64,000 nt of DNA, from positions 1 to 64,000 of the forward strand of contig CAWDSQ010000014.1 in the NCBI GenBank assembly GCA_963804955.1. Reading direction: 5' to 3'. The translations under genes and the position numbers were made by a program. The notes under the pieces were generated by a model. The model worked only from the letters and a program-made list of their open reading frames with translations. It was not told where the DNA came from and searched no databases. This document shows positions 4,290 to 62,838 of this stretch, one piece after another. Origin of the DNA: an uncultured delta proteobacterium (GTDB lineage: Bacteria > Desulfobacterota > WTBG01 > CAIYCZ01 > CAIRTM01). Numbering within the stretch: the stretch's first letter is position 1; each line of letters starts with the position of its first letter.

Positions 4290-5236
4290 TTGAACAATGC
4301 CTGGCTACATGCTACAAAAAGACATGACTCTCACCATCTGCGCTTCGGGCTGTGCTGCCTGTTTAAAAATGAGCCGATCACGTTCAGACGAACAACGGCA
4401 GGATTCCTGCTGAAAAAGCAGCCCGACGAGCAGAAAAGCCTTCTTGCCGCACTCTGCCTGCACAATGCCCGGTCGCTTCTGGCAGCGCTCTCCTATTGCC
4501 GCGATCACGGCATCGGCTGCTTCCGCATCAACAGCCAGATTCTGCCGCTCAAGACGCATCCCGAAGCTAGGCTATGCAGTCAGCGACCTGCCGGGCGGCA
4601 GCGATATAATCGACAGTCTTCAAGGCATGCGGCGCATTCTGCCGGCGCCATGATCTGCGCACCACCTTTCACCCCGATCAGTTTATTGTGCTCTCATCTC
4701 CTGATCCGGGCATTGTGCAGCGCTCGGTTGCCGAGCTTGTGTATCAGGCAGAAGTTGCAGGCTGGGTGCATGCCGATGTCATCAACCTGCATGGCGGCGG
4801 GGCCTATGGCGATAAAAAAACAGCCCTGCACCGCCTGGTGCGCGTCATCCGCAGTCTTCCGCAAAAAGTCCGGTCCCGGCTCACGCTTGAAAATGACGAC
4901 CGCGTCTACACGCCCGCCGACCTGCTGCCGGTCTGCCATGCGACGGGCGTGCCCCTTGTCTACGATGTGCATCACCACCGCTGCCTGCCCGACGGCCTGA
5001 GCGTGGAGGATGCCACGCAGCAGGCCCTTGCCACCTGGAACCGCGAGCCGCTGTTTCACCTCTCAAGCCCGCTTGGCGGCTGGCATTCCGGCACACCGCG
5101 CAGCCATGACGATTATATCGACCCTGCCGATATGCCTGCATGCTGGCGTGATCTGCAGATAACGGTCGAGGTGGAGGCAAAAGCAAAAGAGCTGGCAGTA
5201 AAAAAACTCATGCAGCATATGACTCAACAGCCATAA
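4290..5236 (+). CDS. uvsE: UV DNA damage endonuclease (UvsE/UVDE); frameshifts near 4570 and 4620
   Basis: RFGLCC, FRINSQILP, FHPDQF, HGGGAYGDK, RLTLENDD, YDVHHH and VEVEAKAKELA are spread over three frames. Start codon uncertain. Confidence 0.88.
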
Positions 5237-8300: not shown

Positions 8301-10515
8301 CGTTGAAAAGAACACCCCTTTTCAGATTCCCGCCCCCGGCTTACTGATCAATGATACTGATGCGCTGGGCCATACTCTGACGGCGCTTCCGGTAGCAGAT
8401 CCCTCGCACGGAACCCTTACCCTGAGCGCCGACGGCGCATGTATCTATATACCGGACACCAATTTTACCGGCACCGACAGCTTCACCTATAAGGTAAGCG
8501 ACGGCGAGGAAGACAGCTCTACCGCAACGGTCGAAATAACAGTTGCAAACAGCGCGCCGGAGGCATATGAAGACCGCTACAGCACAGAAAAAAACACCCT
8601 GCTTGCGGTTGCAGCTCCCGGCGTGCTTGACAATGACAGTGATCCAAATGGCGATACCCTGAAAGCAATCCTGGTAGCTGGTCCGGCCTCTGGAACACTT
8701 ACCATGCAGGCAAACGGCTCATTCACCTATATCCCCTCTGCCGATTTCAGCGGAACAGACAGTTTTACCTACACGGCAGCCGACGGCGCCGATACCAGCA
8801 CGGCTGCGACAGTGACGCTCACAATCAACAACTACAGGTTTGCTGCTGCCGAAGACAGCTATCGCGGCGAGAAAAACACCCCTCTTTCTGTTGAACCTCC
8901 CGGTGTGCTTGCCAATGACAGCGCTGCTGAAGGGAGCATGCTGAGAGCAAACCTCGTCAGCAGCCCTTCGCTTGGCTCCCTTGTTTTGAATGCTGACGGC
9001 TCATTCACCTATACCCCTGATGCGGATTTCAGCGGAACAGACAGTTTCACCTACACGGCAACCGACGGCTTCGAAGACAGCCCCCCTGCAACGGTCACGT
9101 TAACCGTCAACAGCCACAGGATTTCGGCTGGCGCAAACAGCTACAGAACAGAAAAAAACAAGCCGCTTTCAGTTGCTGCGCCCGGCGTGCTGGGCAATGA
9201 CAGCGACGCACAGGACCATCCCCTGACAGCGCTTCTTGTACAAGCCCCGTCGCACGGAACCCTTGCCCTGGGCGCAAATGGTTCTTTTATCTATACCCCC
9301 GATAAAGGCTTCTCGGGCACCGACAGTTTTATCTACAAGGCAGGCGATGGCATGGAAGACAGCTCCCCTGCAGCGGTCACCATAACCGCAGCAAACAGGG
9401 GCCCTGCGGCTGCCGCAGACAGCTGCACCGCCGACAAAAACGGCTTGCTTTCGGTGGCAGCCCCCGGCGTGCTGGGCAATGATACCGATCTGGACGGCGA
9501 TCCTCTGACAGCAATCCTGGCTGCCGCCCCGTCGCACGGGGACCTTACGTTTAATACGGACGGCTCATTCACCTATATACCTGGCCGTGATTTCAAAGGG
9601 ACAGACACCTTTACCTACAAGGCGGCCGATGGCGCTGACAACAGCACTGCAGCCCAGGTTACGATAGCCGTCAAAGCACAGCCTGCGGCTGCAGCCGACA
9701 GCTACAGCACGCAAACAAACACCCCGTTTCTGGTCGCATCCCCGGGCGTGCTTGAAAATGACGGCGCTGCAAGCAACGGGGAGTTGACGGCAATGCCCCT
9801 GCGCATGCCGGCACATGGCTCCCTGGCTTTAAATTCTGACGGCTCATTTCTCTATATCCCTGATGCCGGTTTTACCGGCACCGACAGCTTTACCTATACG
9901 GCAAAAGAAGAAGCGGCAGAGGCGCCCCCGGCCGCGGTTACGATAGCCGTCAACAGCCATGTGCTTTCGGCTCGCGCAGACAGCTACAGCACAGAAAAAA
10001 ACAACATCCTTTCGGTTGCAGCTCCTGGCGTGCTTGACAACGATACCGATGCAAACAGCCATAGCCTCACGGCACGTACCGACAACGCCCCGTCGCATGG
10101 CACCCTGGCACTGAACACCGACGGCTCGTTCATCTATACCCCCGACAAAGACTATAGCGGCACGGACAGCTTCACCTACAAGGCTCATGACGGAGCTGAA
10201 GACAGCGCCCCGGCAACCGTCGAACTCCAGGTCACCGCATATGCCGGTCCTCCGGAAACAATCTACGGTGAGAGCTTCGCCGGCCCTGAAACGATTCGCA
10301 TATACCGCGACAGGACGCTTGCGCACACACCGCCAGGCAGGGCCGCGCTGAAGCTGTATGACCGTATGGCTCCTGCGATTGATACACTACTGGGACAAAG
10401 TGATTTGCTCCGGCGGGAGGCTGGAAGGATGATCGAAAAACTGCTGCCGGCGCTGCAAAAAAAAACTGAAGGCTCACACAGCACGCAGGATAATGACACC
10501 GGGGCGAAACGGTGA
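5367..10515 (+). CDS. Large surface protein/adhesin: GLUG/M26-like N-terminal domain, 14 Ig/cadherin-like (tandem-95) repeats, C-terminal CFI-box-CTERM-like domain; frameshift ~7215
   Basis: Signal peptide, GGLVG repeats, and ~94-aa repeats (PGVLxND...HGTLxLxADGSFxYTP...FTGTDSFTY). One extra base at GGCGTGTCTT splits it into ORFs 5367-7226 and 7294-10515. Confidence 0.88.
6290..10240 (+). repeat. 14 intragenic tandem ~280-bp Ig-like domain repeats
   Basis: Recurring gacagctttacctat and cccggcgtgcttg motifs at ~280 bp spacing. Confidence 0.9.
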
Positions 10516-43761: not shown

Positions 43762-44839
43762 TCAGCTGTTTTTTTTCAGGATTGCAGGAAATTTTGATCG
43801 CAGGATGAGCACAATAAGAATCATTGAAAAAGCGACGGTGAGAATTCCTCCGCCTTCATGATGCTCGGCACTTATCCAGCCGGTTATGCTCAGGGAGGCC
43901 CTGCTGTAAAGGGCGTTGACGGCCATACCCAACAGTATCGCGACTGAAGCGATTACTGCCACATACACCGCGGCAATACGCTTGCCTAAAATTTTTGCCA
44001 CGAGTATGATAGTTGCGGCATTCGTTGCCGGTCCTGCAAGCAGAAAAACAAGGGCTGCTCCCGGCGAAAGGCCTTTGAGCGCCAGGGCGGCAACGATGGG
44101 CGTTGATGCCGTGGCACAGACATACAGCGGTATGCCCACCAGCAGCATAACCAGCATGGGGCGCATGCCGCCCCCCAGGTTCTGCTCGATAAAGCCCGGC
44201 GGCACCAGCGCCGAAATCATGCCCGCAATAAGGATACCGAAAAGCAGCGAGGGCCCCATGTCTGCCAGCAGGCCTCCGAAAGCGAAAGCAAGCCCTGAGC
44301 GCATGCGCTGCAGCAGTGACTGTTTATGAGGTGCATGCGTGGTTATGATCGCCCTCATGAGCGCCTTCCGCTTCCCCGGAGCAGCAGGAGCAGGCGGGCT
44401 CGGGAACTTCCCCATTTTGTTTATGCTCAGGAACAAAGTTTACAATAATACCCGTGACAGTTGCCGTGATGAATGCCGCAAGCGGCCGCACAACGGTCAT
44501 GATGGGATCAAGCAGAGCCCAGGTAACGGCAATGGAGTCAACGCCCGACTCTGGCGTTGAAATGAGAAAGGCCGTGGTCGGGCCCTTGCCCGCACCCTGT
44601 TTTCGCAGACCCATGGCAACGGGTATGACGCCGCAGGAGCAGATTGGCATAGGCACGCCGATAAGCGATGCCTTTATGACCGAAGTGATATTGTTCTTTC
44701 CGAGGTGCTTGAGCACAAAATCATCAGGCATGAACGCCCGCAGCAGCCCCGCCATAAAAATGCCGAACAGGCAGTAGCCGGCAGATTCATTAAGCACAAG
44801 CCAGCTTTCCTTTAGTATATTGATCAGCAGCTCAATCAT
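43762..44839 (-). CDS. SO_0444/ArsP-like metal permease; frameshift ~44330
   Basis: PICSCGVIP, FLISTPESGVDS, Cys/His-rich linker, PLYVCATASTP, LAGPATN. Confidence 0.88.
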
Positions 44840-48819: not shown

Positions 48820-49554
48820 TCAACTTAAAATAGCCTTTCGCTGCTGGGCTGCACTGAGGCCGCCGAGATAGAGCAGACGCTCCTCCCGGGCAAACCGCTC
48901 GATGGCATAGCGCAGCATGGTTCGGGGCATTCGGCTGCAGTGCTCCCGTAAAAAAGCCTCTTCGGCTTCACGGTCGCGCTTGCCCACCTCCCGCAGCATC
49001 CAGCCAACGGCCTTATGAATCAGATCATGTTTGTCATCAAGAAGCATGCCGGCAATTTCAAGAGCGCCGTCGAACTGATTGCGCCGGATAAAATAAAATG
49101 TGGCCACAATGGCTATGCGACGCTCCCACAGCAGACCGGAGCGAGCCAGGCGGCGCAGCGGCGCCCGCCTTCTGTCAAACAGGTATGCCCCGACAATATT
49201 GGGCGCGGTCGCGTCCACAAGATCCCAGTTGTTGATGAAGCTCGTATTGGCAAGGTACAATTGGTAAATCCGCCTCCTGACTTCTGCGCTGCCTTTTTCA
49301 AACTTCGCCACCAGAAAAAGCAGCCCCAGCAGCCGGTCTTCATGATGGCCTGCATGCAACAGTGTTTCTGCATCAGCAAGGGGCAGGTCGGGATATTTTT
49401 TCACAAGTTGCCTGAGCACCGGCACCTTGATGCCGCGGAACACATCCCCTTCCCCATACTGGCCAGGCCCGGTCTTGAAAAAACCCCGCAGCACCGCGGC
49501 CTGATCAGGATCGGCAAGCTGTGCAAGCTCATGGGTGATTTTTTTAAACATCAT
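48820..49554 (-). CDS. DNA alkylation repair enzyme (AlkD-like)
   Basis: FFKTGPGQYGEGD, NNWDLVD, LIHKAVGWMLREVGK, MPRTMLRYAIE. Confidence 0.92.
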   Translation of the reverse strand: MMFKKITHELAQLADPDQAAVLRGFFKTGPGQYGEGDVFRGIKVPVLRQLVKKYPDLPLADAETLLHAGHHEDRLLGLLFLVAKFEKGSAEVRRRIYQLYLANTSFINNWDLVDATAPNIVGAYLFDRRRAPLRRLARSGLLWERRIAIVATFYFIRRNQFDGALEIAGMLLDDKHDLIHKAVGWMLREVGKRDREAEEAFLREHCSRMPRTMLRYAIERFAREERLLYLGGLSAAQQRKAILS

Positions 49555-49699
49555 GAACCTCGTGATTTCATCAAATTCTTAGCGTAAAGCCCTACAAAAA
49601 AGAAGGTGGGAAATTCCCCCTGAGCAAAGAAGGGTTAGGGGAATTTGTCAGGTTGCAATAAATCCCCCTGTATCCCCCTTTTTCAAAGGGGGATTAACA

Positions 49700-50022
49700 C
49701 AATACTGTTCATTTAAGCAAAAAACCTCCTCGCACCCGGCACGGGGGAGAGGATCGAAGTGAGGGGACCGTTTTTTTTTGCTGTGTTTTCAACACCCCTC
49801 ATTCCTGAATCACGTTCAGGACAGGCTCTGACCTTCTCCCCTCAAGGAGCCTGTGTCGCAATTAACTTTGCTGTCATCTCGACCGAAGGGAGAGATCTTT
49901 GTAGTAAGTAAAATCAAGGGCTTAAGATTTCTCACCGCCTGCGGCGGATTCGAAATGACATTAATAAATCAATTGCGACACAGGCTCAAGGGGAGAAGGA
50001 CCCTCTTAAATGAACAGCATTG
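49700..50022. mobile_element. Outer MITE with 18-bp terminal IRs and ~9-bp target duplication
   Basis: CAATACTGTTCATTTAAG / CTTAAATGAACAGCATTG, flanked by GGATTAACA and GGATTAAACA. Confidence 0.75.
49847..49987. mobile_element. Inner MITE with perfect 17-bp IRs and AAG target duplication
   Basis: GAGCCTGTGTCGCAATT / AATTGCGACACAGGCTC. Removal restores the hairpin CCTTCTCCCC-TCAA-GGGGAGAAGG. Confidence 0.82.
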
Positions 50023-50104
50023 GGATTAAACAGGCATATTTTTCCCTCTCATAATTACTAGTGCCCCCTTGTTTGCAGGACACTGTGCTTAGCCGCACAT
50101 AAGT

Positions 50105-50140
50105 AAAAAAGAGCGCCGGAACCGGGGCTCGGGCGCTCTC
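50105..50140 (-). terminator. Rho-independent terminator of the kor-hdr cluster
   Basis: GAGCGCC/GGCGCTC stem plus T6 on the minus strand, 25 bp after the hdrA stop. Confidence 0.7.
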
Positions 50141-50164
50141 TGCATTCCGGCACAAGAAATTTTC

Positions 50165-52591
50165 CTATTTCCGCAGCGCCTTGATCGTCGCTTCCACTTC
50201 GCCTGTTGTCACGCCCTGGCGGAGCTTTTCCATCTGATGCATGACATCGGCAAAGCGAATGCCTTCTGCCGCGCTCACCCAGGCAAGCTGCAGCCGCTCG
50301 GTCCGCAGGCCGAGTTTCTCCATTTTTTTGTGCATTTTCTCGACGCGCTTTTCCGTCCAGTGATTTGCATTTATATAGTGGCAGTCACCGATATGGCAAC
50401 CGCTGACCAGTATCACCTTTGCGCCTTTTTCAAAACCGTGCCAGACGAATTTTTCATCAACCCGGCCCGAGCACATGGTCCGGATGAGCCGCACATTGGG
50501 CGGGTACTGAACCCGCGACACGCCGGCAAAGTCGGCCCCGGCATATGAGCACCAGTTGCAGGCAAATACCAGCACTTTATCCTGCGGGTTTTCTCCGAGC
50601 ATGGCGTCGATCTGGCCGGTGATCTGGCCGTCGGTATAGTGGTTCATGGTTATGGCGCCGAACGGGCACTCGGCAGCACAGGTTCCGCAGCCTGCGCATG
50701 CTGCCGTGGTGACTACGGCGGGCGTTTTTTTCTTGATATCCACCGTGATGGCATTATAGGGGCAGACCTCGACACAGCGGCCGCAGGCTTTGCACTGCTC
50801 GGCATTAATAACGGATGTGATAGGCTCGGATGAAATCTCACCCTTATGCATAAGCCGCACGGCGCGCCCGGCTGCGGCTGAAGCCTGCGTGACTGAATCC
50901 TTTATGTCCTTCGGGCCTTCTGCACAGCCGGCAAAAAAGATGCCCCGCGTTGCAGCATCAACAGGCAGCAGCTTCGGGTGGGCCTCAAGGTAGAATCCGT
51001 CAGGAGTCAGCTGCAGGCCGAGCATTTCCTGAAGTTTCCGAAAGTCTTCAGACGGCTTGACCCCTACGGCAAGCACCATCATGTCAAGATCATAGTTTTC
51101 TATTTTACCGGTAGCGCCGTTCTCAACGACAACATGAAGGCTCTTGTCGGAATTCTCCTGTACCGCGCCGGGAAGGCCCCGCACATAGTTGACGCCGAGC
51201 CTGCGGCTGCGCATATAGAGATCTTCAAACCCCTTGCCGAAAGCGCGCATGTCGATATAGAACACCTTGATATCAATATCGGGATAGTGCTCCTTGAGCA
51301 CCAGCGTGCTTTTCACCGTATTCATGCAGCATACATTGGAGCAGTACGCGCCGCCTTTTTTCATAGACCGGGAGCCGACGCACTGAATGAATCCGATGGA
51401 GCGGGGAGGCTTCTTGTCAGTTGGCCGCATCAGCTCACCCTTGCTCGGCCCGCCTGAATTGACCAGGCGCTCAAACTCAAGGCTGGTAAGCATGTTTTCA
51501 AACCGCGTGTACCCGTATTCATCCATCTCAGCGGGGTTGTAGGCGTCAAGGCCCGTAGCCACCACAATGGTGCCCACCTGCTCGGTGATCTGCTCATCCG
51601 ACATATGAAAGTTGATGCACTTCTTCTGGCAGGCTTCAACGCATTTCGAGCAAACCGCCGGGTTATAGCCCAGGCATTCGCTGCTGTTGATCAGAAACGC
51701 CGCCGGCACGGCCTGAGGGAATGGCCGGTAAATAGCTTTGCGTGATGACAGGCCGATATTGAACTCATCGGGGCGCACCACAGGGCAGACCTTTGCGCAG
51801 TCGCCGCAGGAGGTGCATTCTTTTTCATCGACATAGCGGGCTTTTTTCTGAATCGTCACGGTGAAATTGCCCACATAGCCCTTCACATCAACGACTTCGC
51901 TCATCGTATACAGCTTAATGTTTGGATGCCGACCGGCATCCGCCATCTTAGGCCCGAGTATTCATATCGAGCAGTCCATGGTCGGAAATGTCTTGTCAAG
52001 CTGCGCCATCCTGCCGCCTATGGAAGGCTGCTTTTCCACGAGCAGCACCTCATAGCCGTTGTCGGCAAGATCAAGCGCGGCCTGTATGCCTGCAATGCCG
52101 CCGCCGATGACCATGGTACGCTTGGTCAGCGGCAGAATGTCCTCGTACAGGGGCTCGAGCTGCCGGACGCGCTCAACCGCCATCTTTACCAGGTCAAGGG
52201 CCTTGTCCGTTGCAGCCTGCGGCTCATGCATATGCACCCAGCTGCACTGCTCGCGCAGATTGGCCATTTCAAGCAGGTAGGGATTAAGCCCTGCCGTGAG
52301 CAGCATCTTGCGGAATGTGGGCTCATGCAGGCGGGGAGAGCAGGATGCCACCACAATCCGGTTGAGAGCGCTTTCGGCAATGTCGTTCATGATTTCCTGC
52401 TGGCCGGGCGTGGAACAGGCATAGGTTATTTCCTTTGCCACCACGACATCGCCCAGCTTGGCTGCAGCTTCCGACACAGCCTTGCAGTCTACGGTCTGCG
52501 CGATATTGAGCCCGCACCGGCAGACATAGACGCCGATGCGGGGCGCATCCTCAACAGGGGCACGCGTCTTTGACTGAGTCCGTATCTCCAT
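50165..52591 (-). CDS. hdrA: Selenocysteine-containing heterodisulfide reductase subunit A fused to a C-terminal MvhD domain
   Basis: [41 protein letters not shown] in frame, QCVGSR, CSNVCC, ferredoxin motifs, [18 protein letters not shown]. Confidence 0.93.
51924..51964 (-). promoter_or_regulatory. UGA(Sec) codon and bacterial SECIS hairpin
   Basis: UGA at 51964-51962; GGATGCC-GGTC-GGCATCC stem-loop starts ~20 nt downstream. Confidence 0.85.
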
Positions 52592-52616
52592 GTATCCTCC
52601 ATGTGTAGGAAATCAA

Positions 52617-52795
52617 GAGTTCAGAGTTCGGAGTTCGGAGTTCAAAAGTTCAAGGTTAAAAAAAACCCTGAATCCTAAAAAACAAACCCAAATTCCAAAT
52701 TCTGAACTTTAAACTTCCGAACTTTGAACCTTTGAACCCTGTTGTATTACTCCCAACTCCGAACTCTTAACTCCGAACTATTTTGCCTTTGAACC
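52617..52795. repeat. Inverted heptamer-repeat tracts
   Basis: (gagttcR)n ... (actccga/actttga)n. Confidence 0.72.
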
Positions 52796-52797
52796 CG

Positions 52798-54372
52798 CTA
52801 TTCCCACCGGATCGTTTTCACCAGCACGCCGGTCAAATCCATCATATCCATTTTAATCGCATCCGCCTGCATGGGGTCTTCCATGGCGCAGGTCAGGTGA
52901 ATCCGGCATTTCGGGCATGCGGTGATCAGCAGATCGCTGCCCGTGGCGCGCGCCTGCTTCAGGCGCAGAACCTGGAGCTTTTTGCTGTAAGCGTCGCAGC
53001 CCGTCCAGGCGCAATTGCCGCAGCACAGGGCGGCAGCGCCGAAATCCTGCATTTCCTGAAAGCCCTGCGTTTTAAGGCGGCTGATAAGTTTGCGTGGAAG
53101 ATCGGCCTTGCCCTCAAGCCTGCTCAAACGGCAGGGGTCCTGAAACGTGACAGCACGCTCAAGCTTTTTAAAACCCACAGCGCCTTTATCGATTTCCTTT
53201 TCCAGAAGGTCGTAGAGATGCGTAACCGTGCAGGGAAGCTCAATACCGTGAGCCGGATAATCATACACAAACGTGCGGTAGCATTCCGGACAGGCGGTGA
53301 TTATTTCCTCAATGCCGCGATCCTTGATAGCCTGCGCATTGAGCCGGGCAAGGCGCAGAAAATTTTCCTTGTCGCCCGCCCAGAGAAGATCATGGCCGCA
53401 GCAGCGCTCGTCTTCAAGCACTGCGGGCTTTATATCGAAAAAGTTAAGCAGTTTCAGGCTGTCGACGAGAATGTCACGGGTTGTGACGGCAAGAAAATTC
53501 CGGAAAAAATAGTCGAAATAGGCTGCGCAGCCGCCCCAGAAAAGCGTTTTACTTGCGGGGTCGATGGCCACATCTTTGCCGAGCCACTGCCACTTGCGGG
53601 TGGTGAGGCCGGGAGATGCCATGGTGCGCATGAGCGACTGAAAAAACCCTTCATGCGCCTCGCGGCCGGTTTCGGTATCGGGCAGCTCAAGGCCGCGCAA
53701 ATCGCGGATAAATTCGGGAAAGTTTACATCCGAGGGGCAGCGCTCATGGCACAGGCCGCAGGTAAGGCATGCCCTCACGTCTTTCTGCACGGCCTCTGAT
53801 GTCGCACCCCCGGTAATAACCGCATTTGCAATGGCCCGGGGCGAATAATTTTTACCCGTGAGGGCAAGAGGGCAGGCAGACGTGCATTTGCCGCAGTCCT
53901 GACAGGCAAATATGTCGCGAGCCGCAATGATTGTTCGCACCAGCGCTGCCGTATCGGCACTATCGGTCTGCACAGCCTGAGGTGCAACCGGACTTTTGCC
54001 AAGAGCCCTGATGTCATCGCTGAATGTCTTTAAAAACTGCAGAAGCTGCGGGGCTTCATCGGGCAGAGACATTCCCAGGCGCAGGCGCTGCCTGCCGATG
54101 CCCAGCAGATCAAGAATCTCCTGCATGTCATCAATATTGCCGATAGCTGTTTCAGTGCCGCTGCCGTAGCGGCAGGCCCCTGCTGCGCACCCCAGAAGCG
54201 CTACGCCGTCAGCCCCCATTTCAAAGGCCCGCAGCAGCAGAGCCCGGTTGATCCTGCCTGCGCAGGGCACCCGGATGAGGCCGATTTCATCGGGAATGTC
54301 GGCGCCCTGTTCCTGCAGCGTATGCATGGCGGTATGGGGCCCCCAGTTGCAGATAAAAACAATAAGTTTCAT
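52798..54372 (-). CDS. MvhD-like domain fused to HdrD-like (2x[4Fe-4S] plus two CCG domains) protein
   Basis: FICNWG, RVPCAGR, GC...CRY; CQDCGKCTSACP, CLTCGLCHERCP; RCCG, TACPEC, QDPCRL, LCCG, TACPKC. Confidence 0.88.
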   Translation of the reverse strand: MKLIVFICNWGPHTAMHTLQEQGADIPDEIGLIRVPCAGRINRALLLRAFEMGADGVALLGCAAGACRYGSGTETAIGNIDDMQEILDLLGIGRQRLRLGMSLPDEAPQLLQFLKTFSDDIRALGKSPVAPQAVQTDSADTAALVRTIIAARDIFACQDCGKCTSACPLALTGKNYSPRAIANAVITGGATSEAVQKDVRACLTCGLCHERCPSDVNFPEFIRDLRGLELPDTETGREAHEGFFQSLMRTMASPGLTTRKWQWLGKDVAIDPASKTLFWGGCAAYFDYFFRNFLAVTTRDILVDSLKLLNFFDIKPAVLEDERCCGHDLLWAGDKENFLRLARLNAQAIKDRGIEEIITACPECYRTFVYDYPAHGIELPCTVTHLYDLLEKEIDKGAVGFKKLERAVTFQDPCRLSRLEGKADLPRKLISRLKTQGFQEMQDFGAAALCCGNCAWTGCDAYSKKLQVLRLKQARATGSDLLITACPKCRIHLTCAMEDPMQADAIKMDMMDLTGVLVKTIRWE

Positions 54373-54499
54373 GGCAGCAGCATTTTTTTTCACAAGCACC
54401 TGTCCCGGATGTGCCGCGCAGGCGGCACGTATTAAAAAGTCAATCGTATCTACCGGGATGCCCCGCATTGCAGGCGGGGAGCATCACTCCTGTTTTTAA

Positions 54500-57400
54500 T
54501 CAGCGCTCCAGCAGCAGTTCGCCGAGCGCGCGTTCGAGAAAAGCCTGGTTGCGGTACGGGCTGTCCGCAGCATTTGAGGGGCAGACCGAAATGCAGTTGC
54601 CGCAGCCTTTGCACAGAGCATCATCAACCGTTGCGCGCCAGGCGCCGTTTGGGCCGGGCCCGAGGGTAACAGCCTGATAGGGGCAGTGCCGCACGCAGCG
54701 GCCGCAGCCCCGGCACAGCTCTTCATCAACGCAGACGGTAAAGCCCCTGCTTGCGCGCGGGCCCCGCGGCATGCCTGCGGCTGCCAGCACAGCCGCTGCA
54801 GCTCCTTTTTCGCGCTCGGAGAGTTTGACCCCGGGGAAATCGGCCATATAAACGCCGGAAACCGATGTTGCACCCGGATATAAAAACGATATGCCGGTCA
54901 CTCCCTGTTGCTGCATGACTGACGAGATGGTGCGTCCCGGAAGCTCCTTCTGATGGATGCAGGTTAGTTTCTTGGCCTGCCTGCCGCCGAGAATCACGGC
55001 GCCGGCCTGAACGGTCTGCGTATCCTGATCTCCCATTTGAAACGATATCTGAAAATCGCCCCTGGAGCCGTTGATTGCGCTGACCGTGGCGCCCGTAAAA
55101 CGGTGAATATTGGCTTGAATGACTGGCGGTTCATCGCTGTCCTGCAGCGGGGCAAAAAGCAGCACCTCAAAGCCCATGCCGGCAAGGGTCAAAGCGCTCT
55201 GCCGGGCGGCTGCGGAATCACCGATCACGGCGGTTGTGAAGCTGTAGTTATGAGAAGGCGTAGGCAGAAGCTTCAGGCGCCGCGCACGGTTGATGGAGCT
55301 TTCAATAAGGCTTTCAAAGCGGTCAGTTGCGCTATCGGGGCTGCTTTTTACCAGCCGCAGCACCTCGCCGCGCAAATTGCATGCCTCGACCATGGAGCGG
55401 CTCACGCCCGTGCCCGTAAAAAGCCTGTTTTTCAAACGGCTGCGCTGCTCCGTGCAGGAGCTGCACACGAAGTTAAGCGAGCAGCAGACGCATGATGCCA
55501 GAACGGCCCGCGTAATGCCTTTTTCACGAATCGTGCGCACAATTGAGGAATAGCCCTCGGGGACGCAAACAGCTGTTAAAATTTCCGCATGGACGATATC
55601 GGGGCGGGTGGAAAGGCCTTCCATATAGTGCGTCATGCTGTCGAGCCACCCTTTAGAGTCATTGCAGCGGCAGGCAAATACGCCGATGCGGATATCGGGC
55701 GACAGACCGGGATCGGGAACAGAGAACGTCATGCCGTGGCCCCTGGGCCGGGCGCCGCTGCCCCCGAGCAGAACCATGGCCTTGGCGGCAGCGGAAAAAC
55801 CGCGCGCCATAAGCGCGTACGACATCCTCTTTTGATGACTTCGCGTCATAGGCCCGTATCACATCCTCGCCATTGATCTGGCCGGCAGCGTCCTTGTCGG
55901 CAATGATGACAATGCCGGCATTTTCCGTAAGAGCTTCTCCCTCCTGATTATGCAGTATCGCGCCGACAGCTTCGCATGCATCGCTGCACTGCAGGCACTG
56001 GGAGCAGACGCCGCATTGAAGGCAGCGCTGCGTCTCTGCCATCACCTGCTCGCGGTCAAGCCCCAAAGCTGTTTCCAGAAATGTAGAGCGCCGAACTGCA
56101 GGCTCAAGCTCGGCCATGACTGGCCGCAGAGTTTTCTGCGCAATGACGGGAAGGGGGTCAAAATCGCGATCCTGAGGGCGAACAGGCCTATCTGCCGGTG
56201 CTGCGTCGCGGTGCATATGGCTCAGCAGCCCGCGGGCCGCGCTGCGGCCTGAGGCCATTGCTTCAACGGCCGACGTGGGGCCGCTGACACCGTCGCCTGC
56301 GCCATACACGCCGTGCAGATTGGTGCGCTGCTGCGCATCGGTTTTGATAAAACCATTTTTTGTCACATGGAGCCTGCCGTGGGCATCCTGTTGTTTCAGA
56401 GGGCCGGACTGGCCGATTGCAACGAAAGCCATGTCAAAGGGAAGTTCACAGCCCGTTTTTTTCGGGTCTATCACAGGCCAGGGGGTACCGCCGGCATCAG
56501 GTTGCCCGGGCTTTGTGGCAGCGCATTTCAGGCTGCGCAGTTTACCGCCTGCGCCCTCAAAAACCGTCACCTGGCATGAGGCCTTTATGGCAACGCCTTC
56601 CTCGATTGCCGCCTTCACCTCGTCTGCGTCAGCAGGGATTGCATCTTCGGAAAACCAGGAGATCAGGGTCACCTCGGCGCCAAGGCGGCACAGGGCCCGT
56701 GCCAGATCAAAGGCGCTGTTGCCGTCGCCGATGACGGCAGCCCTGCCCTGCAGTTCTTTCACATCACCGCGGTACATGCGATTTAAAAATGCCAGGCACC
56801 CTTCAACCCCTGCAAGATCTTCGCCGGGTACGCCCAGTTTTCGGTCAAGCCAGGTGCCGGTTGCAACTATAACGCCGCTGTGTTTCTTCGCCAGTGTTTC
56901 AAGCTCAAGGGAAACATCAACCGGGTGATTGCAGATAAAGTGAACGCCGAGGCTTTTGATATAGTCGATATCGCGGTCAAGAATATCCTCAGGCAGGCGG
57001 TAGCGCCCCACGCCGTAGCGCAGAAGCCCACCGGGCAGGGGCTCTTTTTCATATACCGTGACGCCGCAGCCTGCACGGGCAAGCTCGGCAGCCGCGGCCA
57101 GGCCTGCAGGGCCGGAGCCGATAACGGCAATACCGGGGGCATCATGGGCTGCCTGTTTTTTGACAGGGGCAGTGGTGGCGGCGTTATCGGTGATAAACCG
57201 CTTGATATCCTTGATGGCAATGGCCTGATCAAGCTCTGCCCGGCGGCAGGCTGTTTCGCAGGGATGCGTGCAGATGCGGCCGCAGATGCCGGGCAGCACA
57301 TTGTCCTGCCGGATAATATCCAGTGCTTCGCCGTATTTTTCATCTCCGCACAGAGCGATATAGCCCTGTGCATTGACGCCAAGCGGGCACTCTTTCTGGC

Positions 57401-57861
57401 AGGGCGGATCGTTGCGCTTTTCAATCACGACCCTGCCGGGAAGGCTCTGGCGCCCATTGTAGATTATTGCTTTACGGCCGGTGTCAAGCTTTACCGGGCA
57501 GCTGTCATGGCAGCGGCCGCAGAGAGTGCATTTTTCCAAATCAACAAAAGTCTGAGGCCGGGTGATTTTTATGGAAAACCCCTGCGCTGCTGTGCTTGAC
57601 AGCATCGACCCGTGCCGGCATATGCAGCCGTATGTCGGGGTTGCGCAGAATACGAATGAGGCCCGGACGGTGGGCGTAATTGAGCCGCACACCCGATTTC
57701 AGCATCCATTCATCGCGGGAAAATTTTGCGTCAAGATCAATGGCCGTATCGATGAGGGTGACCGGTATGCCAAGCTCGCCGAGCTTATTGGCGGCAGTCA
57801 CGCCAGAGGGCGTGGCGCCTATGATGGCTACGCGGTGCAGGCGTTCTTTGGCTTTTTTCAT
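54500..57861 (-). CDS. HdrL-like multidomain flavoprotein (HdrA-like plus GltD/NAD(P)H-binding module); frameshifts ~57580 and ~55825
   Basis: ORFs 57541-57861, 55659-57692 and 54500-55849 join. Motifs: GATPSG, ferredoxin, CGRICTHPCE, GSGPAG, GDGNSA, IGVFACRCND, C-terminal CRGCGRC/CKGCGNC. Confidence 0.82.
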
Positions 57862-58466
57862 GACCCAACTCCCGCATGGCCCGCGGCCTTTTTCTCGCGG
57901 CCTTTGAGCATGGCGGCGCCATAGTCCCAGCCTTTTTTGAAAGCGTTCAGATTCATCTCCTCGGTCCCCTTGGGCACCGAATCCTTCACCGCTTCCTCAA
58001 CCGCCTTGCGCGACACGGCCTGCGTGACAGAGGAAAAAAAGCCGAGCATGACGATATTGGCTATCATCTTGCGGCCCATTTCCTCGGCAAGGCGCGTTGC
58101 AGGTATGGAAAAATAATCGCGGTCAAAACCCGTCGGCTTCACAAGATCCAGATCGGTAATGAGCATGGTCGTATCACAGATCATATTGGCATACTTGTCG
58201 TAGCCGGTCTGGGACATGCAGACCAGTATGTCGGGCCGGCGCACATACGGGTACTGTATCTGCCTGTCGTCGATTATGACCTGGGAGCAGCAGTAGCCGC
58301 CGCGCGACTCAGGGCCGTAGGACTGCACCTGCGTGCTCTCGCGGTGATCGCCCAGAGCCGCGGCTTTACCAAGTATGCTGCCGATAAGCACGACACCCTG
58401 GCCGCCGAAGCCCGTGACCAGTATTTCTTTTTTTGTTGTTATTGCTGCTGCTTGTGTCATCCCCAA
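57858..58466 (-). CDS. korC: 2-oxoacid:ferredoxin oxidoreductase gamma subunit
   Basis: GFGGQG, SYGPESRGG, NIVMLG. Confidence 0.9.
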   Translation of the reverse strand: MGMTQAAAITTKKEILVTGFGGQGVVLIGSILGKAAALGDHRESTQVQSYGPESRGGYCCSQVIIDDRQIQYPYVRRPDILVCMSQTGYDKYANMICDTTMLITDLDLVKPTGFDRDYFSIPATRLAEEMGRKMIANIVMLGFFSSVTQAVSRKAVEEAVKDSVPKGTEEMNLNAFKKGWDYGAAMLKGREKKAAGHAGVGS

Positions 58467-58534
58467 TGCGCCTTTAAAAGTAGTTCTCCTGCACTATCTG
58501 CAGGGTGGTTCTTATAAATGTATAGGTCTTTAGA

Positions 58535-58711
58535 AGAAGCCAGAATCCAGTAGTCAGAATCCAGAATAAAAGGCACATTGCACACTTTGGCTCTGGCGCC
58601 TCGACTGAACTCCGGGCAGGTTTAAAACCTGCCCCTACATGAATTTTTTTAAATCTTGAATCCGGAATCTTGAATTTCTTTACTACTGAATTCTGGCTCC
58701 TGACTTCTGTC
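58535..58711. repeat. Inverted heptamer tracts enclosing a GTAG REP-like element
   Basis: agaagcc-agaatcc-agtagtc-agaatcc ... ttctggc-tcctgac-ttctgtc; CGGGCAGGTTTAAAACCTGCCCCTAC at 58613-58638. Confidence 0.72.
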
Positions 58712-58732
58712 TTCCCGTGCCAGCCTGAAATG

Positions 58733-59572
58733 CTATTCTTTGTGGTACAGTTTATTATAGGTCTCGGTAAAAGTCGGCCTTTCGACATCGACAAAGGTGC
58801 CCAGGACAACCCGCTTTTTAAAATCAACGGCAAGCTCTGCCGGGTTGGCGTTGTTTTTGATAATCGTTTTATCCTGATACATCTTCAGGGTGTCAAGGGG
58901 CCGCTCCTTATTGCGCCTGCCGTAGTTGACCGGACAGGGCGCCAGCACCTCGACGAAGGAGAAACCTTTTCTGGTCAGGCAGGACTGAATGGATTCGGTA
59001 ACCTCGCGGGTATGCAGCATGGTCCAGCGGGCGATATAGGTTGCACCTGAGGCATAGGCAAGCAGCGGCAGGTTAAACGGGCTGTCCGGGTTGCCCAAAG
59101 GGGTCGTGGTGGTGCGGGCAAGGCTCGGGGTTGTGGCCGCCACCTGGCCGCCGGTCATGCCGTAATTGAGATTATTGATACAGATGACGGTCATATCGAT
59201 ATTTCTGCGGGCGGCATGAATAAAATGATTGCCGCCGATGGCAAACAAATCGCCGTCGCCGCTGAAAACGATCATATGGAGGTCGGGGTTGGCGATCTTC
59301 ATGCCCGTGGCAAAAGGAATGGCCCTGCCATGGGTGGTATGAAACGAGTCGACCTTTGCATAGCCGGCGCCGCGTCCCGAGCAGCCGATGCCCGAGACCA
59401 TGACGGTTTTATCCAGATCGATGCCGCTAGCAAGCATGGCATGCAGGCATGATGAAAAGACCGTGCCAATGCCGCAGCCCGGGCACCAGATATGGGGCAT
59501 CCGGTCAGTGCGAATCAGATCGTCAAGAGGATGCTTCTGCTCGCTTGTAACCTTTTTGGCCTGTGCTGCCAT
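58733..59572 (-). CDS. korB: 2-oxoacid:ferredoxin oxidoreductase beta subunit
   Basis: WCPGCG, SGIGCS, GDGDLFAIGGNH, YGMTGGQ. Confidence 0.93.
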   Translation of the reverse strand: MAAQAKKVTSEQKHPLDDLIRTDRMPHIWCPGCGIGTVFSSCLHAMLASGIDLDKTVMVSGIGCSGRGAGYAKVDSFHTTHGRAIPFATGMKIANPDLHMIVFSGDGDLFAIGGNHFIHAARRNIDMTVICINNLNYGMTGGQVAATTPSLARTTTTPLGNPDSPFNLPLLAYASGATYIARWTMLHTREVTESIQSCLTRKGFSFVEVLAPCPVNYGRRNKERPLDTLKMYQDKTIIKNNANPAELAVDFKKRVVLGTFVDVERPTFTETYNKLYHKE

Positions 59573-59644
59573 GTTTCTTATGCCTTTCGGGACACTGCAT
59601 GCAGGTGCGCTCCTCAGGGCCGCGCCTGCTGTGTCCCCGTATGA

Positions 59645-60803
59645 TTACTGGTTCGATGTCAGCTCTTTGAGCGCGGCATATACGCGCTCCGGCGGTATGA
59701 TGGCGCCGCCGGCATGACCTACCAGCACGGTCTCTGCCCTGCCGCAGGCGCAGCGCTCTACTTCGCGGTGTATCTGCCCCATATTCATCTCAACGGTCAC
59801 AAATGCTTTGACCCGCCGGGACAGCTCCTGCACCAGCGCATCCGGAAAAGGCCAGACAGTTATCAGGCGCAGCAAGGCCGACCTTAATGCCGTCGCGCCG
59901 CGCGTCCTCAACTGCGGCATAGGCTGTGCGGGCCGAAGCCCCATAGGACACGATGCAGATATCTGCGTCATCCATCAGGTACTGTTCGGTGCGGATGATG
60001 TCGTCCAGATTATTTTGAATTTTGCCGACCAGGCGCGTCATCATGATTTCCTGCGCTTCAGGGGACATGGCCGGATAGCCGCGCTCATCATGAGTAAGGC
60101 CCGTTATATGCACCCGGTAGCCGTCTCCGGCTGCGGGCATGGGGGCAACGCCATAGGCTGTTGTTTCATAGGGCTTGAACCGGTCTTTGCGGCCCTTTGG
60201 CTTGATTCTTTCGAAGGTCTTTATTTTTTTCGCATCCGGGATAATGACCTTTTCGCTCATATGGCCGATGATTTCATCGGACATCACCAGAACGGGCAGG
60301 CGGTATTTCTCGCTCAGGTTAAAAGCATCTATGGTGTGGTAAAACATTTCCTGCGCCGACATGGGGGCAAAGGCTATAATCTCATAGTGGCCGTGGGAAC
60401 CCCAGCGGGCCTGCATCATATCGCCCTGAGCGCCAAGGGTGGGAAGGCCGGTGGAGGGGCCTGCGCGCTGCACATTCACCACCACGCAGGGGGTTTCGGT
60501 GCAGATGCCCAGGCCTATATTTTCCATCATGAGGCTGAAGCCCGGGCCCGATGTTGATGTCATGCTTTTCCTGCCTGCCCATGACGCGCCGAGAATTGAC
60601 GCCATGGCCGCAATTTCATCCTCCATCTGGATATAGGTGCCTCCGGCCTGAGGCAGGCGCGAGGACATATGCTCTGCTATTTCTGTTGCAGGCGTTATCG
60701 GATAGCCGCCGAAGAACTGGCACCCCGCGGCAAGCCCGCCTTCTGCGCAGGCCTCGTCGCCTGTCATATAATGTTCGCCCGTTAAAACTGCTGGATTGCT
60801 CAT
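59645..60803 (-). CDS. korA: 2-oxoacid:ferredoxin oxidoreductase alpha subunit; frameshift ~59870
   Basis: GYPITP, QMEDE, TSGPGFSLM, QRAGPSTGLPT; C-terminal VWPFP...EMNMGQ in the second frame. Confidence 0.92.
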
Positions 60804-60874
60804 GAAAGTGCCGCTATCTAATAAATAAAAAGTTTATATAGTCTGCGCAATGCGCCGCTCCACTCCTGTCCGGT

Positions 60875-61198
60875 CTATTTTACCGCAGGGCAGCAGGCGC
60901 CAGCCGCATCACCCTGCTGTGGCTGGTCGCCCGGCTCTGTGCCCGGCGCTTCAACCGAATAGATGGCAAGCTCTGGGCAGATAATCTCGCAGAAATGGCA
61001 GTTGACGCATTCCTCGGGTTTTGTAACCTCAGGCGGGTGATAGCTTTTTTTATTGAATCTCGTGGAGGTTTGAAGGATTTTTTTCGGACAGAACGCAATG
61101 CAGTACCCGCAACCCTTGCAGCGGTCATCAACGATATGAACTATACCTCGCGATACGATGACCTCTTCGGCATCAAGGGGCACTCTCCAGAAATCCAT
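60875..61198 (-). CDS. korD: 2-oxoacid:ferredoxin oxidoreductase delta (ferredoxin) subunit
   Basis: CKGCGYCIAFCP, CVNCHFCEIICP; GGAG RBS before MDFWR. Confidence 0.88.
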   Translation of the reverse strand: MDFWRVPLDAEEVIVSRGIVHIVDDRCKGCGYCIAFCPKKILQTSTRFNKKSYHPPEVTKPEECVNCHFCEIICPELAIYSVEAPGTEPGDQPQQGDAAGACCPAVK

Positions 61199-61582
61199 TG
61201 TCTTTGCTCTCCAATATCTTATTGCAAAGACGACAGGATATAGAATTTTCATAAAAAGTCAAGGCAAATGAAAGCATTGCCGCCATTGCTCATGCTTTTT
61301 TGACTGGGTATGGCCTTTTTCGGTGGCGATATGACTATAAATGACTTTATGGTGCCCTGCCTAAATATAGCAAAACAGGTGTTCCTGCAGGGTACAGACA
61401 TGTTTCAAAGCCATATACCCCTTGAAAACCCCCTTGTTTCAGGGGGAGGTGTGGCGTATTGCCAACTCTGATTGTTCATAATGCACATAAAGCTATGAGT
61501 CCGGCCAAATTTCATTTGCATATTGGCGCAACAACAACTAAAATGAACCATATAATAAAAAAATGGTTCAAGGGAGAGTGCC

Positions 61583-61840
61583 ATGAAATCAATAACCATA
61601 CATAATCTCGATGATCCTCTTGATAGACTGCTGCAGGAAAGGGCGAGAAGTCAGGGAATGAGCCTCAATAAAACAATAAAATCTCTGCTTGCCGAATCGC
61701 TGGGTATACGGCCAAAAAAACCAGCAGGGCATAAAGATGAATTCATGGACCTTTTTGGTTCATGGTCTGAAGCTGATGCCAGATCATTCAGGCAGACCGT
61801 GAAGGATTTACAAAAAATAGATGCCGAAGACTGGTCATGA
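61583..61840 (+). CDS. Ribbon-helix-helix antitoxin (FitA/VapB-like)
   Basis: MKSITIHNLDD...GMSLNKTI; ATGA overlap with the PIN gene. Confidence 0.85.
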   Translation: MKSITIHNLDDPLDRLLQERARSQGMSLNKTIKSLLAESLGIRPKKPAGHKDEFMDLFGSWSEADARSFRQTVKDLQKIDAEDWS

Positions 61841-62241
61841 AAAAAATCATCCTTGACACCAATGCCTATGTCGCCTTTCTTGCCGGTGACAGCGCTGTTC
61901 TTGATGCGCTTGCCCAGGCCGAAATCGTCTATATATCGGCAATCGTGCTCGGGGAATTATACGCCGGCTTCAAGGGCGGCAGAAAAGAATCTGACAACAG
62001 GACGCAGCTTGATGTTTTTCTAAAAAAATCAACGGTGCATGTCGTCAATGTCACACAGGAGACAGCCGATGTCTTCGGCGCAATAAAAAGCAGCCTTAAA
62101 AAGACGGGGACTCCCATTCCGATCAACGATGTCTGGATAGCCGCACACGCTACCGAGACTGGCGCTGTGCTCATAACCTATGATACGCACTTTTCCAAAG
62201 TGCATGGCTTGCGCCTCTGGAAGAGACATCAGGGGATGTAG
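61837..62241 (+). CDS. vapC: PIN-domain toxin
   Basis: LDTNAY, LGELYAG, PINDVWIAA, ITYDTHF. Confidence 0.92.
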   Translation: MKKIILDTNAYVAFLAGDSAVLDALAQAEIVYISAIVLGELYAGFKGGRKESDNRTQLDVFLKKSTVHVVNVTQETADVFGAIKSSLKKTGTPIPINDVWIAAHATETGAVLITYDTHFSKVHGLRLWKRHQGM

Positions 62242-62346
62242 CTGTTTCACCCCCCATGCTTTTACATCTGATAAGTCCAACTTAGACCCCTTTTCCTCCT
62301 TCGGTTAACCCTCCGAATTCCGAACGCCCTACGAAACCCGAACTGT

Positions 62347-62838
62347 TTACTTTTTCAAACTGCTCAGCTCACGGATGGTCTGAATCTCCTGCTCCTTTTC
62401 CCGGCCCCGCTTGTCCTGCTCCCACACATAATACCAGTAGCCTTTTTGGGGCACCTGCTCAAGCAGAACCATTCTGCGCGGCGCAACAAGAATCAGGTTC
62501 AGGACCTTGCACGCCTCCCGCAGTTTTTCGCTTTTTTTAGCTTCTGCAAAAAGATAATCTGCATGGCGGGCATCGCCGGCAGGAACAACTTCAGCCCTGC
62601 CCCAGATCTGCAAACCCTTAAGCGGATGACTGGTCGAGTGCAGCGCCAGAGCCACATTGGGGTTCTTTTTCAGACAGGCAAACTTGCGCGTAAACTTTTC
62701 GGAATAAATAACTATGTTCATGCCGTCGGTGGCGTAGCGTACAGGCGTTGCCCGAACATCATCTCCCGTGCCGGTGCAGAGAACGCAGTACTGGTTTTCG
62801 CCGAGATACCGTAGAATCTTTTCTTTGCTTGCTCCCAT
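62347..62838 (-). CDS. Pyridoxamine 5'-phosphate oxidase-like flavin-binding protein
   Basis: CVLCT..VRATPV, TRKF..LKKNPNVAL, GLQIWGRA. Confidence 0.8.
   Translation of the reverse strand: MGASKEKILRYLGENQYCVLCTGTGDDVRATPVRYATDGMNIVIYSEKFTRKFACLKKNPNVALALHSTSHPLKGLQIWGRAEVVPAGDARHADYLFAEAKKSEKLREACKVLNLILVAPRRMVLLEQVPQKGYWYYVWEQDKRGREKEQEIQTIRELSSLKK

Follow-up and report, generated by a model that had tools for sequence, protein, structure and literature searches.

We analysed a stretch of 64,000 nucleotides from an uncultured delta proteobacterium of the phylum Desulfobacterota (assembly GCA_963804955.1, contig CAWDSQ010000014.1, positions 1 to 64,000), referred to below as the window. Between positions 50165 and 61198 it carries seven genes, all on the minus strand and in the order korD-korA-korB-korC-hdrL-(mvhD-hdrD)-hdrA(Sec)-mvhD, that place a 2-oxoacid:ferredoxin oxidoreductase (OFOR, here Kor) next to a heterodisulfide reductase (Hdr) module with a selenocysteine (Sec) in HdrA. 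An initial annotation of the same DNA had recognised seven co-oriented genes and suggested that Kor itself is the redox partner of the Hdr module. The open reading frame (ORF) coordinates and the Pfam and NCBIfam domain matches agree with the first of these points.

The Kor genes make up a four-subunit enzyme of the KorDABC/OorDABC kind, with alpha, beta, gamma and delta subunits encoded together. The delta gene, korD (60875..61198), encodes 107 amino acids from the ATG at 61198, which is preceded at 8 nt by GGAGAG; tblastn matches of relatives begin at residues 11-19 of a longer ORF. The protein has two [4Fe-4S] motifs (Pfam Fer4), and its eight cluster cysteines are invariant in 21 orthologues. 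The alpha gene, korA (59645..60803), has POR_N and two PFOR_II halves distributed over two overlapping ORFs and scores 499 bits against the NF006412 cut-off of 411. The beta gene, korB (58733..59572), encodes the thiamine pyrophosphate (TPP) subunit with a TPP_enzyme_C domain, and its best solved relative is 8ys5_C, the beta subunit of a 2-oxoglutarate:ferredoxin oxidoreductase. The gamma gene, korC (57858..58466), matches Pfam POR. At the KorD N-terminus (window 61172-61198), Hdr-linked copies share the motif M-x-[FY]-W-R-x-P-[LF]-D, with W4, R5, P7 and D9 invariant in 21 orthologues, and a KorD-like paralogue on contig C7 of the genome is without it. This motif could be a docking element or a subfamily signature.

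The Hdr part begins with hdrL (54500..57861), which encodes about 1120 amino acids with HdrA-like pieces flanking an NfnB/GltD-like FAD/NAD(P)H module. It is followed by the mvhD-hdrD fusion (52798..54468), composed of FlpD (the [2Fe-2S] MvhD domain), an HdrC-like dicluster domain (Fer4_17) and two HdrB-like CCG domains, and by the hdrA(Sec)-mvhD fusion (50165..52591), an 808-aa protein with Pyr_redox_2, Fer4 and FlpD domains in which one in-frame TGA is read through. As the initial annotation had stated, the korC stop overlaps the hdrL start by 4 nt (ATGA, 57858-57861); the remaining intergenic gaps, in gene order, are 71, 72, 266 (korB-korC), 31 and 206 (hdrD-hdrA) nt. The terminator that had been placed after hdrA is also evident in sequence and fold: a minus-strand stem-loop at about 50103-50141 is followed by a run of six T, and a 78-nt stretch folds at -27.8 kcal/mol. 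A consensus scanner missed it because the terminator loop is long. Promoter-like sites found by a consensus scan were at chance level (9 found versus 7.6 expected), and an Rfam scan of 49000-62500 at E<=1 returned zero matches. The reported absence of hydrogenase, formate dehydrogenase and Flx-type genes held for the domains of the 53 other scanned ORFs of the window. From this gene anatomy we infer co-transcription of the seven genes as one operon.

Two of the spacers are enlarged by dispersed repeats. The korB-korC spacer (58467..58732; 266 nt) has 28 blastn matches in the genome including the locus itself; contigs of other strains skip 104-114 nt of it, and it measures 40-90 nt in most other lineages. 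The hdrD-hdrA spacer (52592..52797; 206 nt) has 15 such matches, again including the locus itself, and 131 nt of it are replaced in one public-run contig. The region downstream of hdrA (49555-50164) is likewise repeat-filled, with 86 blastn matches including the locus itself. The repeats are short and dispersed and resemble miniature inverted-repeat transposable elements or repetitive extragenic palindromes; one has inverted ends of about 30 nt around 49850-50000.

In the deposited sequence, two overlapping ORFs make up korA and three make up hdrL, a split that the initial annotation had overlooked. Alignment with a genome of the same genus (G002) traced the breaks to three 1-nt insertions, near 59874 in korA (an extra T) and near 57585 and 55820 in hdrL. 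The same genes are single frames in the relatives G002 and G004, and in 23 relatives an uninterrupted ORF of 1099-1150 aa encodes HdrL. At each of 57585 and 55820, contigs from three public runs (two studies) are shorter by exactly one letter; they left the korA site (~59874) unsettled. The assembly itself (87% complete, 36 contigs) splits the essential gene rpoB into two frames (C30:222099-226147), with rpoC intact, and an ArsP permease gene in the window (43762-44839) is divided into two overlapping ORFs. We read the three insertions as probable assembly errors, not gene decay, because the relatives and the independent contigs are without them and rpoB is split too; the assembly therefore carries indel errors, and gene calls in this genome need care. 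A decaying pseudogene cluster with three real frameshifts could be argued from the presence of three breaks within 11 kb, one of which lacked a check by independent contigs, and is nevertheless very improbable: rpoB and ArsP are split as well, neither hdrL site shows the extra letter in the contigs of three runs, and the genes have accumulated no stop codons or other damage, with 86-97% identity to G002 and all motifs intact. Programmed frameshifting was considered and rejected, as the three sites have no common motif and the genes of relatives are plain single frames. We regard the operon as real and intact in nature.

The in-frame TGA of hdrA (51962..51964, minus strand) aligns with Cys197 of a solved HdrA (5odc_A) and stands at the same position in all 37 relatives whose motif was found; among paralogous HdrA copies, three have TGC there and two have TGA. 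A hairpin resembling a selenocysteine insertion sequence (SECIS) lies 20 nt 3' of the TGA (51924..51941, minus strand), with a 7-bp stem and a GGUC loop that is kept in 37 of 38 sequences. One pair of its stem is C-G in 18, U-A in 15 and U-G in 5 of the 38, a compensatory change across coding region. The genome also carries tRNA-Sec (contig C25), and with an in-frame UGA at a Cys position, a downstream SECIS and this tRNA, the Sec codon is well supported and the protein is a selenoprotein HdrA. The HdrA assignment of the initial annotation is supported by a score of 1198 bits against the NF040770 (HdrA2) cut-off of 1100 and by a full-length alignment to the solved HdrA (5odc_A, E 8e-233 over residues 16-665), with MvhD chains matching over residues 670-787. 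The FAD motif GxGxxG is present as GGGIAG. By sequence, this is an HdrA2-type fusion with MvhD, for which bifurcation is predicted.

Pfam divides HdrL into a Rossmann piece, a Fer4 domain, a Fer4_20 plus Pyr_redox_2 unit of the GltD-like kind, and an HdrA-like part with two Fer4 domains. The FAD motif GxGxxG (G248/G250/G253) and the NAD(P)H motif GxGxxA (G378/G380/A383) of the insert are invariant in 23 of 23 sequences, as are some thirty cysteines. By sequence as well as fold, the nearest relatives of the insert are flavin subunits of the bifurcating Nfn/Stn transhydrogenases (9n5u, 9bov, 8oh5, 4ylf, 5jca), and the top Foldseek matches of an HdrL model were NfnABC, StnC and NfnB. This AlphaFold2 model (mean pLDDT 62.9, pTM 0.43) is too weak for domain packing and was used just for the Foldseek search with the central module. 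Pfam, NCBIfam, sequence and Foldseek matches thus concur with the dinucleotide module that had been predicted for HdrL, which is of the GltD/NfnB type.

The nucleotide loop of HdrL (residues ~399-405; window ~56480-56500), which comes after the second beta strand, the one that binds NAD(P)H, reads S-W-F, versus Y-R-R in all five solved relatives compared, so the NfnB-type loop is not present in the window. The Y-R-R loop binds the 2'-phosphate, and because S-W-F replaces it we write the electron donor as NAD(P)H; NADPH cannot be assumed. S-W-F is invariant in the 23 aligned HdrL sequences of the window's subtype. Across the window and 48 kor-linked loci we counted 25 S-W-F, 13 Y-R-R and 11 [AG]-[IV]-E loops, each tied to a cluster clade, and these three types may reflect different nucleotide preferences.

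HdrD keeps all eight ferredoxin cysteines (2 x CX2CX2CX3C) and both five-Cys CCG sets in 43 of 43 sequences, apart from one position kept in 39 of 43. With two PF02754 domains, it belongs with the HdrBC or soluble HdrD-type disulfide reductases and not with HdrDE, as no HdrE cytochrome b gene was found in the cluster or its flanks. Together with the invariant HdrL motifs and the conserved Sec codon and SECIS, this indicates that the cofactor sites are under selection.

Conserved kor-hdr synteny across the phylum was the check that the initial annotation had set for itself. With the MvhD-HdrD protein as marker (orthologue at E<=1e-70), we took the best locus per genome and mapped the window's proteins onto it, in 401 genomes sampled evenly across the phylum and in 42 species genomes of the class. 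An HdrD orthologue was found in 73 of the 401 genomes. All seven genes occur in the window's order in 39 of these (window included); in 5 of the 73, kor, hdrL and hdrD are shown and the locus is cut by a contig end, and in 2 they are present with hdrA absent within 4 kb. Six loci have hdrL-hdrD-hdrA on contigs that end before kor could appear, one was too short to judge, and 20 hold a different, kor-less cluster with tandem hdrA genes. The check was therefore passed: kor adjoining hdrL is shown in 46 of the 401 genomes, from 17 families, and no locus with an hdrL and hdrD orthologue and available upstream DNA was kor-less. In the class, the HdrD orthologue was found in 12 of the 42 genomes, and the gene order is identical wherever contigs allow. 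These counts convey breadth and are not a statistical test, because kin are not independent.

The fixed order and the tight korC/hdrL junction persist in lineages down to 28-38% HdrL identity, and HdrA(Sec)-MvhD adjoins at 43 of the 46 kor-bearing loci. At the two loci without nearby hdrA the situations differ: one genome (G276) has an orthologue on another contig, and the other (G074, a single contig) has none closer than 44% identity. A reduced variant occurs in G074 and G112, in which korDABC is followed by a short HdrL (a GltD-like module with a ferredoxin tail) and then by separate mvhD and hdrD genes. The window's genome also contains a kor-less Hdr cluster (C5:149000-164200) of the type seen at the 20 kor-less loci above; it encodes an HdrL-like protein, several HdrA copies in tandem and an MvhD domain. 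In the flanks of the loci, an ORF family of >=70 aa recurred in at most 2 of 48, and within 2 kb one of >=40 aa in at most 3 of 48. By this comparison, the seven genes appear to be the whole unit and the flanking genes are not conserved.

We evaluated whether the Kor and Hdr parts share a history using FastTree phylogenies, one of KorB with 48 rows and one of HdrA with 40 rows, labelled by HdrL nucleotide-loop type. Two changes, the minimum, suffice for the label on either tree, and both trees set the S-W-F group apart by a branch with support 100. The window's genus clusters with another family of its class (f4). In its own family, the remaining genera with the cluster, g7 and g8, have the I-E type, as does family f23, with which they group. 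A topology that keeps the copies of the window's family together was rejected in the approximately unbiased (AU) test for HdrA (p-AU 6e-06) and for KorB (p-AU 7e-57); the tested group is taxonomic, and the test was run after the first tree was seen. Because the label fits both trees and both reject vertical descent in the family, the Kor and Hdr parts thus appear to share one history, including replacement or transfer of the whole string. We regard the cluster as widespread and mobile within the phylum.

For Kor, 2-oxoglutarate enzymes come out best among both the equivalogs (NF007207, NF007206) and the solved relatives (8ys5, 6n2n), with scores below the cut-offs (241 < 364; 345 < 579), and Por/Vor models score far lower than the 2-oxoglutarate models. 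We left the Kor substrate unassigned because KorB and KorC fall under the equivalog cut-offs.

The initial annotation had named DsrC as an example of the disulfide that might be reduced, and this part was not borne out. No dsrA match was found in the window's genome or in any of the 8 sampled genomes of its family, and the genome (87% complete) has no match to the DsrC/TusE family (TIGR03342). Among the 12 class genomes that carry the cluster, only G021 gave a DsrC-family match; the other 11, some of them 94-100% complete, gave none. With no match to dsrA or DsrC, the window's genome does not fit a DsrC-dependent Hdr-like system, and DsrC is not supported as the disulfide in this organism by its gene content. 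In the wider phylum sample, dsrA occurs in 42 of 52 cluster-bearing or cluster-consistent genomes and is missing from 10, against a background of 204 of 401. The module is more frequent in sulfate/sulfite reducers, although it is not dependent on them. No thiol-carrier or ferredoxin gene was linked to the cluster in the flanks of 48 loci.

Parts of the cluster resemble several known enzymes. The methanogen MvhAGD-HdrABC complex and the formate dehydrogenase/Hdr/formylmethanofuran dehydrogenase assemblies (5odc, 7bkb, 8rvu, 9sw2-6) share with it a full-length HdrA, MvhD domains, an HdrC-like dicluster and Sec or Cys at Cys197. In 7bkb, low-potential electrons reportedly pass straight to a CO2-reducing enzyme via a polyferredoxin, and we propose the same logic for Kor. 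Compared with those assemblies, the window's cluster would take electrons from NAD(P)H via HdrL instead of H2 or formate and would have an OFOR as acceptor, and its HdrB/C are fused as HdrD with an extra MvhD; unlike methanogens, its host is a bacterium without CoM/CoB. The HdrA2B2C2 enzyme of Methanosarcina (NF040770) likewise has HdrA fused to MvhD, but it uses F420H2, and no F420-related subunit is encoded in the window's cluster. NfnAB, NfnABC and StnABC (4ylf, 5jca, 9n5u, 9bov, 8oh5) have a bifurcating-flavin subunit that shares the Fer4_20, FAD and NAD(P)H fold and motifs with the HdrL insert, whereas in the window S-W-F stands for Y-R-R and the module is embedded in an HdrA-like scaffold.

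HdrL was defined in Desulfobacterium autotrophicum as a large protein resembling HdrA, with an NAD(P)H module of the glutamate-synthase kind and an MvhD coding region following it (Strittmatter 2009; PMC2702500), and the window protein has all of these features. According to a figure legend of that paper, the D. autotrophicum hdrL loci adjoin dsrABC, fdh or hdrA, not kor, and two of its HdrL proteins contain Sec, which the window HdrL does not (PMC2702500). A closer parallel in logic is found in the reverse tricarboxylic acid (rTCA) clusters of tubeworm symbionts and Thioflavicoccus mobilis, for which the accessible text describes korABCD/tfrAB interspersed with flxABCD-hdrABC and proposes that bifurcated electrons are handed by a complex directly to 2-oxoglutarate:ferredoxin oxidoreductase (Rubin-Blum 2019; PMC6315080). 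There too, by that description, Kor is genetically tied to an NADH-oxidising Hdr module, but NADH enters through FlxABCD, HdrABC is separate and a thiol:fumarate reductase is present. The window differs in having HdrL (NfnB-like) as input and HdrB/HdrC fused with MvhD, and has no flx or tfrA. As only MvhD (FlxD-like) domains and no flxABC are encoded, it is not an FlxABCD-HdrABC system.

The most similar cluster in print is 'HdrAL/POR (Sfum_0012-0018)' of Syntrophobacter fumaroxidans, which in the part of the source available to us appears in one sentence as 'not detected' in proteomes (Sedano-Nunez 2018; PMC5947623). By that description it is of the same kind: seven genes of an organism in the same phylum combine an HdrA/HdrL-type Hdr with a 2-oxoacid:ferredoxin oxidoreductase. 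Its OFOR was called a pyruvate enzyme by the authors, whereas the window best matches the 2-oxoglutarate type, and the orthology of the two loci is our reading of the description. Nothing on a kor-hdr linkage was found in Nobu 2020 or in a Desulfurivibrio paper. Full-text literature searches gave no biochemical study of a Kor-HdrL-Hdr enzyme, in line with the initial statement that no characterised complex has such a composition. The cluster is a variant of the Hdr/Nfn bifurcating systems with an OFOR as built-in partner, and has appeared in print only in passing.

We propose that the seven genes encode one soluble, reversible, flavin-based electron-bifurcating complex with three arms, and put the probability of this reading at about 0.5. 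Kor as dedicated redox partner of the Hdr module, the core of the initial suggestion, is reasonable because the adjacency is conserved, HdrL has an NAD(P)H module, HdrA is full-length and the HdrD cysteines are kept. The physical association, the bifurcation, its direction and 2-oxoglutarate as substrate are what we infer beyond this. Potentials are near -500 mV for the 2-oxoacid/acyl-CoA + CO2 couple and near -320 mV for NAD(P)H, and considerably higher for heterodisulfide-type couples. One argument for the proposal is that HdrA- and Nfn-type bifurcation links exactly these three redox levels.

In the proposed complex, HdrL would oxidise NAD(P)H at its NfnB-like flavin, the mid-potential input. 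Via MvhD and the HdrC-like clusters, electrons would reach the CCG site of HdrD and reduce a disulfide, which would be the high-potential, exergonic arm. Low-potential electrons would arise at the HdrA(Sec) flavin, at the NfnB-like flavin of HdrL, or at both, and would pass via Fe-S clusters to KorD. From KorD they would enter the TPP site of KorAB, where an acyl-CoA would be reductively carboxylated, in the likeliest case succinyl-CoA with CO2 to 2-oxoglutarate, and a free reduced ferredoxin pool would not be required. Run in reverse, 2-oxoacid oxidation and thiol oxidation would together yield NAD(P)H. From the minimal variant of G074 one could speculate that the NfnB-like flavin, with the MvhD [2Fe-2S] cluster as high-potential outlet, is itself a bifurcation point. 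A bolder version, which we hold only tentatively, is that of a self-contained, horizontally mobile seven-gene module whose supercomplex would need no reductant other than NAD(P)H to fix CO2 into a 2-oxoacid, its bifurcating flavin (NfnB-like, HdrA-type or both in series) feeding Kor directly, without free ferredoxin, at the expense of a non-DsrC disulfide. The S-W-F, Y-R-R and I-E subtypes would in that version be tuned to different pyridine-nucleotide pools, and it is the whole of this, taken jointly, that we consider possible and somewhat doubtful.

Several observations weigh against the three-armed complex. Contact between Kor and Hdr is read from gene linkage; a complex prediction for HdrL residues 1-700 with KorD (both alignments) scored 0.18 against a mark of 0.32, had no controls and speaks neither for nor against it. 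The operon is read from anatomy, no RNA dataset holding the stretch was found among public runs, none of which contained more than 1/4 of the words sampled from it, and the repeat-filled spacers (206 and 266 nt) could hold internal signals. The S-W-F loop makes even the electron donor uncertain. Neither of the HdrA-like Rossmann starts of HdrL has a typical sequence (consensus GATPxG and GxSxAA), and HdrL may therefore hold the NfnB-like flavin only. KorB and KorC are under their NCBIfam equivalog cut-offs, the genome has at least three further OFOR loci, and neither a linked thiol-carrier gene nor, in this lineage, DsrC was found. The one-contig genome G074 has kor, the short GltD-like HdrL, mvhD and hdrD with no close hdrA, so HdrA is not indispensable to every variant. 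Finally, the S. fumaroxidans cluster proteins were 'not detected' under the conditions tested, according to the same partial source (PMC5947623).

Three other explanations account for some of the same observations. Four-subunit OFORs normally use soluble ferredoxin, and Kor and Hdr might be two separate enzymes that communicate via free ferredoxin, with HdrL, HdrD and HdrA acting as an NAD(P)H:ferredoxin:disulfide oxidoreductase like FlxABCD-HdrABC and the operon serving co-expression. KorD as an ordinary two-cluster delta subunit would suit this arrangement, and synteny indicates functional linkage, not contact. We nevertheless think it unlikely, although the most serious of the three: such enzymes would have to account for seven genes in a fixed order with a tight korC/hdrL junction down to the most divergent HdrL proteins and for co-inheritance of the Kor and Hdr parts, and the flanks of the 48 loci hold no linked ferredoxin gene while other OFORs serve general ferredoxin metabolism. 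A quite improbable explanation is a non-bifurcating 2-oxoacid:NAD(P)+ oxidoreductase made of Kor and the GltD-like module of HdrL, with HdrD and HdrA as a side branch to a disulfide. The NAD(P)-linked OFORs of Azoarcus and Thauera provide a model for such an enzyme, subunits of NADH-dependent phenylglyoxylate dehydrogenase are among the weaker NCBIfam matches of Kor, and the G074 variant keeps just kor, the GltD-like protein, mvhD and hdrD. However, HdrA(Sec)-MvhD is under strong constraint, because it is adjacent in 43 of 46 loci and 59-78% identical across the phylum, and MvhD and HdrD are kept even in the minimal variant, where a simple dehydrogenase would not need them.

The remaining alternative keeps the complex and turns its direction around: it would work oxidatively and confurcate, low-potential electrons from a 2-oxoacid and high-potential electrons from a thiol merging to reduce NAD(P)+. 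HdrA- and Nfn-type enzymes are reversible, and the many carriers with dsrA are sulfur-metabolising organisms. The Hdr complexes of S. fumaroxidans, in the available portion of their description, 'most likely confurcate' (Sedano-Nunez 2018; PMC5947623). Against this stands the lack of an evident source of reduced thiol in a genome without a dsrA or DsrC match, and we give the oxidative direction a small chance, although sequence evidence cannot give direction.

Elsewhere in the window, immediately upstream of korD and on the strand opposite to it, there is a toxin-antitoxin pair of a FitA-like antitoxin and a PIN-domain toxin (61583-62241). Two large adjoining ORFs (619 and 1073 aa) at 5367-10515 contain repeated bacterial Ig/cadherin-like domains and may derive from a single adhesin gene interrupted by a frame break. 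A UvdE-like ORF (4290-5000) matches just the first quarter of its profile, a further sign of a frame break outside the operon.

The hypothesis of a three-armed Kor-Hdr complex is testable at the bench, because the cultured S. fumaroxidans carries such a cluster, going by the available description, and 46 of 401 phylum genomes have it. Reductive carboxylation by OFORs needs electrons at about -500 mV, and their supply in anaerobes with little reduced ferredoxin is a problem for the reverse or branched TCA cycle. If the proposal is true, the cluster would represent a new class of flavin-based bifurcating enzyme, in which Kor is coupled directly to an NAD(P)H-fed module. HdrL, unexplained since 2009, would gain a function, and the cluster would point to a new thiol/disulfide carrier in bacteria without DsrC.

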